From assembly GCF_003018115.1 (NCBI RefSeq), contig NZ_CP027457.1: a stretch of 64,000 nucleotides of DNA, one strand, 5' to 3'. The notes beneath the pieces are model-generated. The model worked only from the letters and a program-made list of their open reading frames with translations, was not told where the DNA came from and made no database searches. Positions 48,209 to 49,552 of this stretch are shown piece by piece (within the stretch, counting starts at the first letter, position 1; the number at the start of each line of letters is the position of its first letter). A program made the translations under genes and the position numbers. The DNA is from Escherichia coli. Its GTDB lineage: Bacteria; Pseudomonadota; Gammaproteobacteria; Enterobacterales; Enterobacteriaceae.

Positions 48209-48403
48209 ACTGAAGAGGTATGCGGAAAACGTTGTGGATTATACCTGTCGCACGCCACCATGCAAGCGCCAGCTTGCTCGCACCTCGCTAAGTGCTGAAA
48301 TTTTCAGCATTGCATACAGCGATGTGTAACCTTTGTCACACTCCAGGCACCCCGCCCTGCCATGCTCTACACTTCCCAGACAACACCAGAGAAGGACCAA
48401 AAA

Positions 48404-49423
48404 ATGTCGATGATAAAAAGCTATGCCGCAAAAGAAGCAGGCGGCGAACTGGAAGTTTATGAGTACGATCCCGGTGAACTGAAGCCACAAGATGTTGAAG
48501 TGCAGGTGGATTACTGCGGGATCTGCCATTCCGATCTGTCGATGATCGATAACGAATGGGGATTTTCACAATATCCGCTGGTTGCCGGGCATGAGGTGAT
48601 TGGTCGCGTGGTGGCGCTCGGGAGCGCCGCGCAGGATAAAGGTTTGCAGGTCGGTCAGCGTGTCGGGATTGGCTGGACGGCGCGTAGCTGCGGGCATTGC
48701 GATGCCTGTATTAGCGGTAATCAGATCAACTGTGAGCAAGGTGCGGTGCCGACGATTATGAATCGCGGCGGCTTTGCCGAGAAGTTGCGTGCGGACTGGC
48801 AATGGGTGATCCCACTGCCAGAAAATATTGATATCGAGTCCGCCGGGCCGCTGTTGTGCGGTGGTATCACGGTCTTCAAACCACTGTTAATGCACCATAT
48901 CACTGCCACCAGCCGCGTTGGGGTAATTGGTATTGGCGGGCTGGGGCATATCGCTATAAAACTTCTGCACGCAATGGGATGCGAGGTGACAGCCTTTAGT
49001 TCTAATCCGGCGAAAGAGCAGGAAGTACTGGCGATGGGTGCCGATAAAGTGGTGAATAGCCGCGATCCGCAGGCACTGAAAGCACTGGCGGGGCAGTTTG
49101 ATCTCATTATCAACACCGTCAACGTCAGCCTCGACTGGCAGCCTTATTTTGAAGCGCTGACGTACGGCGGTAATTTCCATACGGTCGGTGCAGTTCTCAC
49201 GCCGCTGTCTGTTCCGGCCTTTACGTTAATTGCGGGCGACCGCAGCATCTCTGGTTCTGCTACCGGCACGCCTTATGAGCTGCGAAAGCTGATGCGCTTT
49301 GCCGCCCGTAGCAAGGTTGCGCCGACCACCGAACTGTTCCCGATGTCGAAAATTAACGACGCCATCAAGCATGTGCGCGACGGTAAGGCGCGTTACCGCG
49401 TGGTTCTGAAAGCTGACTTCTGA
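48404..49423 (+). CDS. ahr: NADPH-dependent aldehyde reductase Ahr (YjgB), zinc alcohol dehydrogenase family
   Basis: ORF track frame; start [21 protein letters not shown]; Zn-ADH motifs ([15 protein letters not shown]). Confidence 0.9.
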
Positions 49424-49552
49424 TCTCTTTGCCGGGTGCCTGTCGCCCGGCACTTAAATCTCTTTGGAAGGCGTCTCGCAATCTGCTGAATTTAGCGGTG
49501 AAGAGTGCGCAGCCGTTGCCTATACTCCAGGCAGGAAACTGGAGGAAATCTC

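Follow-up and report, generated by a model that had tools for sequence, protein, structure and literature searches.

The idn-less ahr-yjgR junction beside leuX is the commoner of two alleles in Escherichia coli

The locus studied here lies in a 64-kb stretch of Escherichia coli DNA, hereafter the window, and comprises leuX, ahr and yjgR. leuX, the gene for tRNA-Leu(CAA), occupies positions 48124 to 48208 on the minus strand. It was the single tRNA gene found in the window by ARAGORN, it matched the Rfam tRNA model with 59.4 bits, and it is annotated in the closest genome; its 3′ end (48124) points to the variable island side. The ahr gene (yjgB), coding for an NADPH-dependent aldehyde reductase, is intact (48404 to 49423, plus strand, 339 residues). 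Its product gave a full-length match to the NCBIfam equivalog model NF047908 (residues 1 to 337, 553.6 bits for a cutoff of 470), contains the Pfam domains ADH_N and ADH_zinc_N, and aligned with K-12 Ahr over its entire 339 residues at 99% identity in tblastn. yjgR (49553 to 51055, plus strand) is intact as well and codes for a HerA-like P-loop ATPase of unknown function. The 500-residue protein matched Pfam HerA_C (PF05872) over its full length (residues 5 to 500, 841.8 bits) and is 98% identical to K-12 YjgR over 500 residues by tblastn. The order leuX, ahr, yjgR is the same in the RefSeq annotation of the closest complete genome, and lptG, lptF, pepA, holC and valS follow 3′ of yjgR in a K-12-like order. 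Between ahr and yjgR is a spacer of 129 bp (49424 to 49552, plus strand), which represents the empty-site allele of what we call the idn slot. The ORF list holds no ORF inside this spacer, an Rfam scan of the whole window gave no match in it, and a scan for a sigma-70-like promoter of yjgR or ahr between positions 48000 and 49700 found none. The adjacency of the two genes at 129 bp had been proposed in a sequence-only reading of this DNA, and the sequence together with the NF047908 and PF05872 matches shows that its coordinates and gene calls were right. As a matter of gene order, the adjacency raises no issue of chance.

In K-12 DH1, leuX and ahr are followed by idnK (minus strand), idnD, idnO, idnT, idnR and yjgR. 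The other side of leuX is taken up by intB and then KpLE2, with its IS elements, fecIRABCDE, yjhF-I, sgc genes and yjhPQ, beyond which lie a fragment of a phosphorothioate-DNA restriction endonuclease gene, nanS, nanM, nanC and fimB. This annotation bears out the K-12 order that the earlier reading had given, with idn between ahr and yjgR and intB/KpLE2 across leuX. The subsidiary gluconate (GntII)/L-idonate cluster idnK-idnDOTR fills precisely the interval from the ahr stop codon to the yjgR leader in K-12, CFT073 and O104:H4. In the window, it is absent from this slot, which holds an alternative filler of 90 bp instead. When the 64-kb window was searched by tblastn with the K-12 proteins, IdnD matched only Ahr (26% identity), IdnT matched only GntP (40%, 29107 to 30411), and IdnO, IdnR and IdnK had no match. 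The GntP and Ahr matches are at the level of paralogs, and the window is without an idn ortholog. The claim that no idn cluster lies between ahr and yjgR thus holds, given a spacer of 129 bp and tblastn matches to paralogs only.

The alignment with K-12 defined the junction to the nucleotide. Homology ends at the ahr stop codon (49423) and returns at 49514 (position 12001 of the K-12 locus), 39 bp 5′ of the yjgR start, so that the homology breakpoints enclose 90 bp in the window versus 5,087 bp in K-12. A 12-mer, TCTCTTTGCCGG, is located directly 3′ of the ahr stop codon (49424 to 49435, plus strand) and occurs once in the window. It is also present once in each of the idn-carrying loci of K-12, CFT073 and O104:H4, where it closes the insert on the right-hand side and is separated from the shared yjgR leader by 1 nt. 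According to the breakpoint alignment, the next 78 nt (49436 to 49513, plus strand) are specific to the empty allele and correspond to a single A in K-12. Homology to K-12 then covers the yjgR leader, CGTTGCCTATACTCCAGGCAGGAAACTGGAGGAAATCTC (49514 to 49552, plus strand), which is common to both alleles, is conserved in Citrobacter and is partly conserved in Enterobacter. The idn allele therefore consists of the ahr stop codon, 5,074 bp with idnK and idnDOTR, the 12-mer, 1 nt and the yjgR leader, and the empty allele of the ahr stop codon, the 12-mer, 78 nt and the yjgR leader. Two indels separate them, namely the 5,074-bp idn segment that separates the stop codon from the 12-mer, and the 78 nt in place of a single A. 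Neither allele can thus be converted into the other by one deletion, and since the empty allele holds sequence that the idn allele lacks, it cannot have arisen from the K-12 arrangement by simple deletion. Local alignments of the 90-bp filler to both strands of the 5,087-bp K-12 segment were also inspected for idn remnants; the best scores, 13 to 14, fell inside the range of shuffled sequences (11 to 17). The sole meaningful resemblance of the filler to the idn segment is the positional 12-mer at the borders.

A terminator scan detected a G+C-rich hairpin with a 9-bp stem just 3′ of ahr (49430 to 49452, plus strand). It is begun by the 12-mer and completed by the initial part of the 78 nt. Its RNA fold has an energy of −17.3 kcal/mol and a z-score of only −1.5 relative to shuffled sequences, an unremarkable stability. 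The hairpin, which has a weak U-tract, is likely to be a terminator or stabilizer for ahr, and in Citrobacter werkmanii a hairpin is found at the same place with another stem sequence. The 78 nt also hold a block conserved across genera, CTTTGGAA..CTCGCAATCT..AATTTAGCGGTGAAGAGTGC, as seen in the alignment with Escherichia albertii and C. werkmanii.

The distribution of the two arrangements was determined in a reference set of 5,426 complete E. coli genomes (20,395 records). With a 181-bp probe across the junction and a coverage of at least 80%, the empty junction was found in 3,211 genomes (59%). The idn segment was present in 2,055 (38%), always on the chromosome and at a median of one place, at most two; no plasmid-borne idn was found among the 20,395 records. 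ahr was missing altogether in about 158 genomes. Taken together, the empty, idn and ahr-less classes account for about 5,424 of the 5,426 genomes and are thus essentially mutually exclusive. A synthetic query for an intermediate allele, composed of the idnR 3′ end, the 12-mer, the 78 nt and the yjgR leader, reached a coverage of at least 80% in 0 of the 5,426 genomes. E. coli has only two alleles at the ahr-yjgR slot. The window strain carries the commoner one and K-12 the minority, insert-bearing state, and the feature is thus real but ordinary.

Both states occur inside phylogroups B2 (CFT073 with idn, ATCC 25922 empty) and B1 (O104:H4 with idn, O26:H11 empty), and O157:H7 is empty at ahr-yjgR. 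These distributions qualify two statements of the sequence-only reading. It had taken the missing cluster, together with the missing KpLE2, as the mark of a non-K-12 lineage: the strain is indeed not K-12, its nearest genomes being F8111-1SC3, LR882990.1 and O169:H41 2014EL-1345-2, but because both states are found inside B1 and B2 the junction as a lineage marker says just "not K-12-like at this locus". It had also described idn as lacking relative to K-12. The genes are absent, but the loss that this wording implies does not follow, as the empty state is the majority state, contains 78 nt that are foreign to K-12, and is shared with E. albertii and a Citrobacter. Variability of idn has been described before: idnK is absent from ST131 H30 and H22 (PMC5369007), L-idonate degradation genes are over-represented in hemolytic-uremic syndrome (HUS)-associated Shiga-toxigenic E. 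coli (STEC) (PMC4216125), idnO and idnT come up in a gene-content genome-wide association study (PMC10225485), and L-idonate degradation is "sporadically distributed throughout the salmonellae" (PMC3158058).

Outgroup loci were obtained from a YjgR scan of species-representative genomes, which yielded 80 loci, 7 of them enterobacterial; neither Salmonella nor E. fergusonii was represented. E. albertii and C. werkmanii have ahr directly next to yjgR, and their spacers are homologous to that of the window, with a hairpin at the same place and the conserved block 5′ of the shared leader. In Citrobacter sp. FP75, the ahr-yjgR site is occupied by idnK-idnDOTR. Its Idn proteins are 80 to 96% identical to those of K-12 and its flanking proteins 91 to 94%, its idn DNA is 77 to 83% identical to that of E. 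coli, and its right junction is of the K-12 type (TCTCTTTGATGG-A-CATTGCC). In two Enterobacter genomes, the ahr-yjgR slot contains a gene of 548 to 568 codons on the minus strand (8217 to 9863 and 8224 to 9930 of their loci) that was called dihydroxyacetone kinase-like by eye from the N-terminal sequence; it would add a third type of cargo to the slot. In Escherichia and in Citrobacter alike, the presence of idn goes along with a synonymous GAT/GAC difference located 9 nt 5′ of the ahr stop codon. Because both junction types cross genera and the GAT/GAC difference tracks idn in both, both types are old, and the site behaves as a cargo slot with two allele classes. In Salmonella Typhimurium LT2, idn presumably adjoins yjgB and leuX.

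The slot is reminiscent of the K-islands, strain-specific backbone segments that Perna et al. are said to have described in 2001 in their comparison of K-12 with O157:H7. In both situations, a few-kilobase metabolic cluster of K-12 is replaced by a precise backbone junction, here in O157:H7 and the window strain, and the borders are without integrase, IS element or tRNA. Unlike for the K-islands, both allele classes cross genera here, and the junction has a displaced 12-mer and a second indel.

We then compared the diversity of idn with that of its flanks, using seven E. coli loci and coarse identity bands. Among DH1 (phylogroup A), CFT073 (B2) and O104:H4 (B1), the nucleotide identity of the idn genes is 99.0 to 100%, to which purifying selection or codon effects on idn may contribute, versus 95.1 to 98.1% for ahr, 93.6 to 95.9% for yjgR and 98.4 to 99.4% for lptG-lptF. 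The number of mismatches per 200-bp bin jumps from 0–4 to 15–20 precisely at the idn borders. Of the 2,055 carriers, 1,961 have idn genes at least 99% identical to those of K-12; a yjgR that close to K-12 was found in 750 genomes of the whole collection and such an ahr in 843. The idea that flank haplotypes sort by idn status was ruled out, as the only sites fixed between the idn-carrying and empty classes are four in the last 20 nt of ahr, with none in yjgR.

Two further observations concern the flanks. Within E. coli, ahr and yjgR are 93.6 to 98.1% identical, about half the divergence to E. albertii (88 to 91% identity), and the neighboring lptGF 98.4 to 99.5%; a protein identity of at least 98% in one pair, the window versus K-12, suggests that the changes in ahr and yjgR are mostly synonymous. 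ATCC 25922, nominally of phylogroup B2, and O26:H11 11368 (B1) are 100% identical over approximately 4.7 kb of ahr, yjgR, lptG and lptF, and other pairs differ by 2 to 6% in ahr and yjgR. This identity suggests that the region has recently moved between phylogroups.

Of the hotspots of phylogenetic incongruence that Touchon et al. (2009, PMC2617782) identified in E. coli, the leuX region, with fimA, is one of the two largest; it covers approximately 200 kb, and every genome has non-homologous inserts at leuX. The locus described here lies 200 bp to 1.4 kb from leuX and has the signs of this hotspot, i.e., non-homologous leuX inserts, hyper-diverse flanks, and haplotypes that are identical across phylogroups (ATCC 25922 and O26:H11). 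The idn slot is distinct from the leuX insertions in being a second variable point across ahr, not a tRNA-integrated island.

Across leuX from ahr, a blastn comparison of the window with K-12 delimited a leuX-adjacent segment of 3.9 kb (44165 to 48071) at the place of the 39.7-kb KpLE2, in agreement with the claim that the window is without this island. The segment is present in 333 of the 5,426 E. coli genomes. The attachment neighborhood is the same as that of KpLE2, and the distal backbone (endonuclease gene fragment, nanS, nanM, nanC, fimB) is common to both, but the window is devoid of intB, IS elements, fec, sgc, yjhF-I and yjhPQ and has instead an unrelated 3.9 kb with an orphan ORF of 682 codons. 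tblastn with K-12 IntB gave no match in the 64-kb window, no integrase was found in the 3.9-kb segment, and the 25-nt 3′ end of leuX occurred once in the window even when 3 mismatches were allowed, with no repeat at the far border. The segment therefore has neither the integrase nor the direct repeat of the tRNA 3′ end that define a tRNA-integrated island.

The orphan ORF beside leuX (45398 to 47446, minus strand) is annotated as a "hypothetical" protein of 678 residues in relatives. Searches of Pfam, NCBIfam and PDB sequences returned no match, and PADLOC gave a marginal one (E = 0.002). Related proteins are found in Salmonella (75% identity) and in Izhakiella, Xenorhabdus, Pectobacterium and Pantoea (41 to 56%), and UniRef names one of the relatives "NERD domain-containing". 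Invariant residues D487, E494 and K496 resemble the motif of PD-(D/E)xK nucleases, and the protein is possibly a defense nuclease. Its AlphaFold2 model is poor (mean pLDDT of 52.8, with an alignment of 7 sequences). A gene for a phosphorothioated-DNA-binding HNH restriction endonuclease (43840 to 44769, plus strand; Pfam HNH_2, 8e-10; PADLOC HNH, 4e-24) forms one continuous ORF of 309 codons in the window; relative to F8111-1SC3, in which it is annotated as frameshifted, there is one additional G, at 44727. K-12 has only a fragment of roughly 250 bp of this gene.

Other features of the window were noted along the way. The 314-bp fim switch fimS (37307 to 37620), bounded by the 9-bp inverted repeats TTGGGGCCA and TGGCCCCAA, is inverted relative to K-12 DH1, and both its flanks are collinear. 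The best sigma-70-like site within it (TTGAGA-18-TATGAT, 37572 to 37601, plus strand) faces away from the minus-strand gene fimA, and for this reason the assembly appears to have captured the phase-OFF orientation. The pepA-holC intergenic region (55179 to 55477) has two matches to the REP-derived Rfam family naRNA4 (RF02564; 55251 to 55326 and 55347 to 55422) and contains a tandem unit of approximately 96 to 113 bp in more copies than in K-12 (approximately 354 bp versus approximately 160 bp). A match of 180 bits to Rfam Ysr276 (RF02850) at 54223 to 54417 on the minus strand, antisense within pepA, most likely reflects conservation of the pepA sequence rather than a separate gene.

The complete genomes nearest to the window, F8111-1SC3, LR882990.1 and O169:H41 2014EL-1345-2, are 99.6% identical to it over 15 kb. 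F8111-1SC3 differs by 67 SNPs and 1 indel over 27.7 kb. Approximately 60 of these 67 SNPs are clustered between 57979 and 62164 (valS 3′ end, yjgN, yjgM, rraB, argF/argI), in what looks like a recombination tract; the rest of the compared sequence accounts for 7 SNPs and the indel. As SNPs separate the window from its nearest genome, the source genome is absent from the complete-genome collection. The nearest genomes were queried with a chimera of the window pepA and the reverse complement of K-12 idnD, an orientation that keeps the two parts from merging into one place. The query gave one place, corresponding to pepA only, in F8111-1SC3, 2014EL-1345-2 and LR882990.1, and two places in idn-carrying genomes, which served as positive controls. 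idnD thus has no match anywhere on the chromosomes of the three nearest complete genomes.

Several histories could account for a junction of this kind. The idn genes might be present in the strain at another chromosomal site or on a plasmid, as only 64 kb of its genome are visible and the exact genome is outside the collection. The sequence-only reading had called for a check of this point, and the answer for the genome beyond the 64 kb comes from relatives: the three nearest genomes have no idnD match although the positive controls worked, carriers have idn in single copy (median of one, at most two) and never on a plasmid among the 20,395 records, and the empty, idn and ahr-less classes add up to the total. 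Relocation is therefore very unlikely. That the adjacency of ahr and yjgR is an artefact of assembly, i.e., a collapsed or mis-joined contig, has nothing specific in its favor, and with the same junction sequence in thousands of independently finished genomes, both flanking genes intact and a spacer conserved in other species, we regard its probability as negligible. A recent deletion of the operon from a K-12-like arrangement in this lineage has in its favor the precise absence of idn between two conserved genes and the frequent loss of metabolic operons. However, a deletion cannot make the empty allele, because its 78 nt are absent from every idn-carrying locus examined. Moreover, the identical junction is found in 3,211 genomes of many phylogroups and also in E. 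albertii and C. werkmanii, and no intermediate or alternative breakpoints were seen in the 5,426 genomes. We give this scenario only a slim chance.

The junctions alone leave the polarity undecided, since insertion of idn with loss of the 78 nt, and an ancestral idn followed by one deletion in each lineage, would take two events each. In the latter case, the ancestor of Escherichia and Citrobacter would have had idn together with the hairpin and the block, serving as idnR terminator and yjgR promoter; an ancient, precise deletion would have created the empty allele, and the idn allele would separately have lost the 78 nt. Besides being equal in number of events to the insertion scenario, this history would agree with the idn cluster of Citrobacter, which is at the same site and co-divergent (Idn proteins 80 to 96%, flanking proteins 91 to 94%), and with the presumed position of idn in LT2. 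Sporadic L-idonate catabolism in Salmonella too (PMC3158058) would fit. Nevertheless, idn is far less diverse than its flanks in E. coli, with a break at the junctions, which fits a young class better; the slot is empty in E. albertii, the one further Escherichia species in the sample; and the predicted ancestor, with idn and the 78 nt, was not found in the 5,426 E. coli genomes. We consider an ancestral idn possible but rather unlikely. If it were true, the window would carry an old loss allele.

The explanation that we favor, and hold to be highly probable, is that the allele in the window is the common one without idn, part of an old presence/absence polymorphism at an ahr-yjgR cargo slot within the leuX/fim recombination hotspot. 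The strain would have inherited the empty allele or gained it through homologous recombination, with no deletion of idn from a K-12-like ancestor. It would as a result be without the GntII/L-idonate pathway, ahr would keep its own downstream hairpin, and yjgR would keep an upstream block that is missing in idn-carrying strains. The idn allele, for its part, would have spread between phylogroups more recently, by recombination through the flanks. With regard to polarity, we lean toward a young idn class because idn is far less diverse than its flanks, with a step at the junctions. On balance, and with modest confidence, we infer that the empty class is older and more diverse and that the idn class spread or swept through E. 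coli more recently by flank recombination, after which the flanks were re-shuffled with empty-class DNA. A counterpoint is the K-12-type junction in Citrobacter with idn DNA of 77 to 83% identity, which means that the idn allele itself is old; this fits poorly with a young age in E. coli, unless a re-import or a sweep took place. We propose only tentatively that idn is a nearly clonal cassette (99 to 100% across A, B1 and B2), flanked by two backbone genes that rank among the most diverse, and moved recently by homologous recombination, in a trans-genus polymorphism kept by fluctuating or niche-dependent selection on L-idonate or 5-ketogluconate use, one haplotype of which has swept.

The finding is an instance of known accessory-gene variation inside a known hotspot, as both the variability of idn and the leuX hotspot are already published. 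What is new, and only mildly so, is the exact two-indel anatomy of the junction, the occurrence of both alleles in more than one genus and the abrupt step in diversity at the idn borders. The latter provides a small example of recombination shaping the leuX/fim hotspot. With two alleles in 5,426 genomes, the displaced 12-mer and the 78-nt indel make a clean class marker for PCR or in silico typing. Both the step and the marker leave current understanding unchanged. The strain is predicted to use neither L-idonate nor, by the GntII route, 5-ketogluconate; gntP is retained, and the main GntI system would be as well, judging from the rest of the species. For annotation, the lesson is that K-12 represents the minority state at this site (38% versus 59%), and that "missing relative to K-12" is not to be read as loss.
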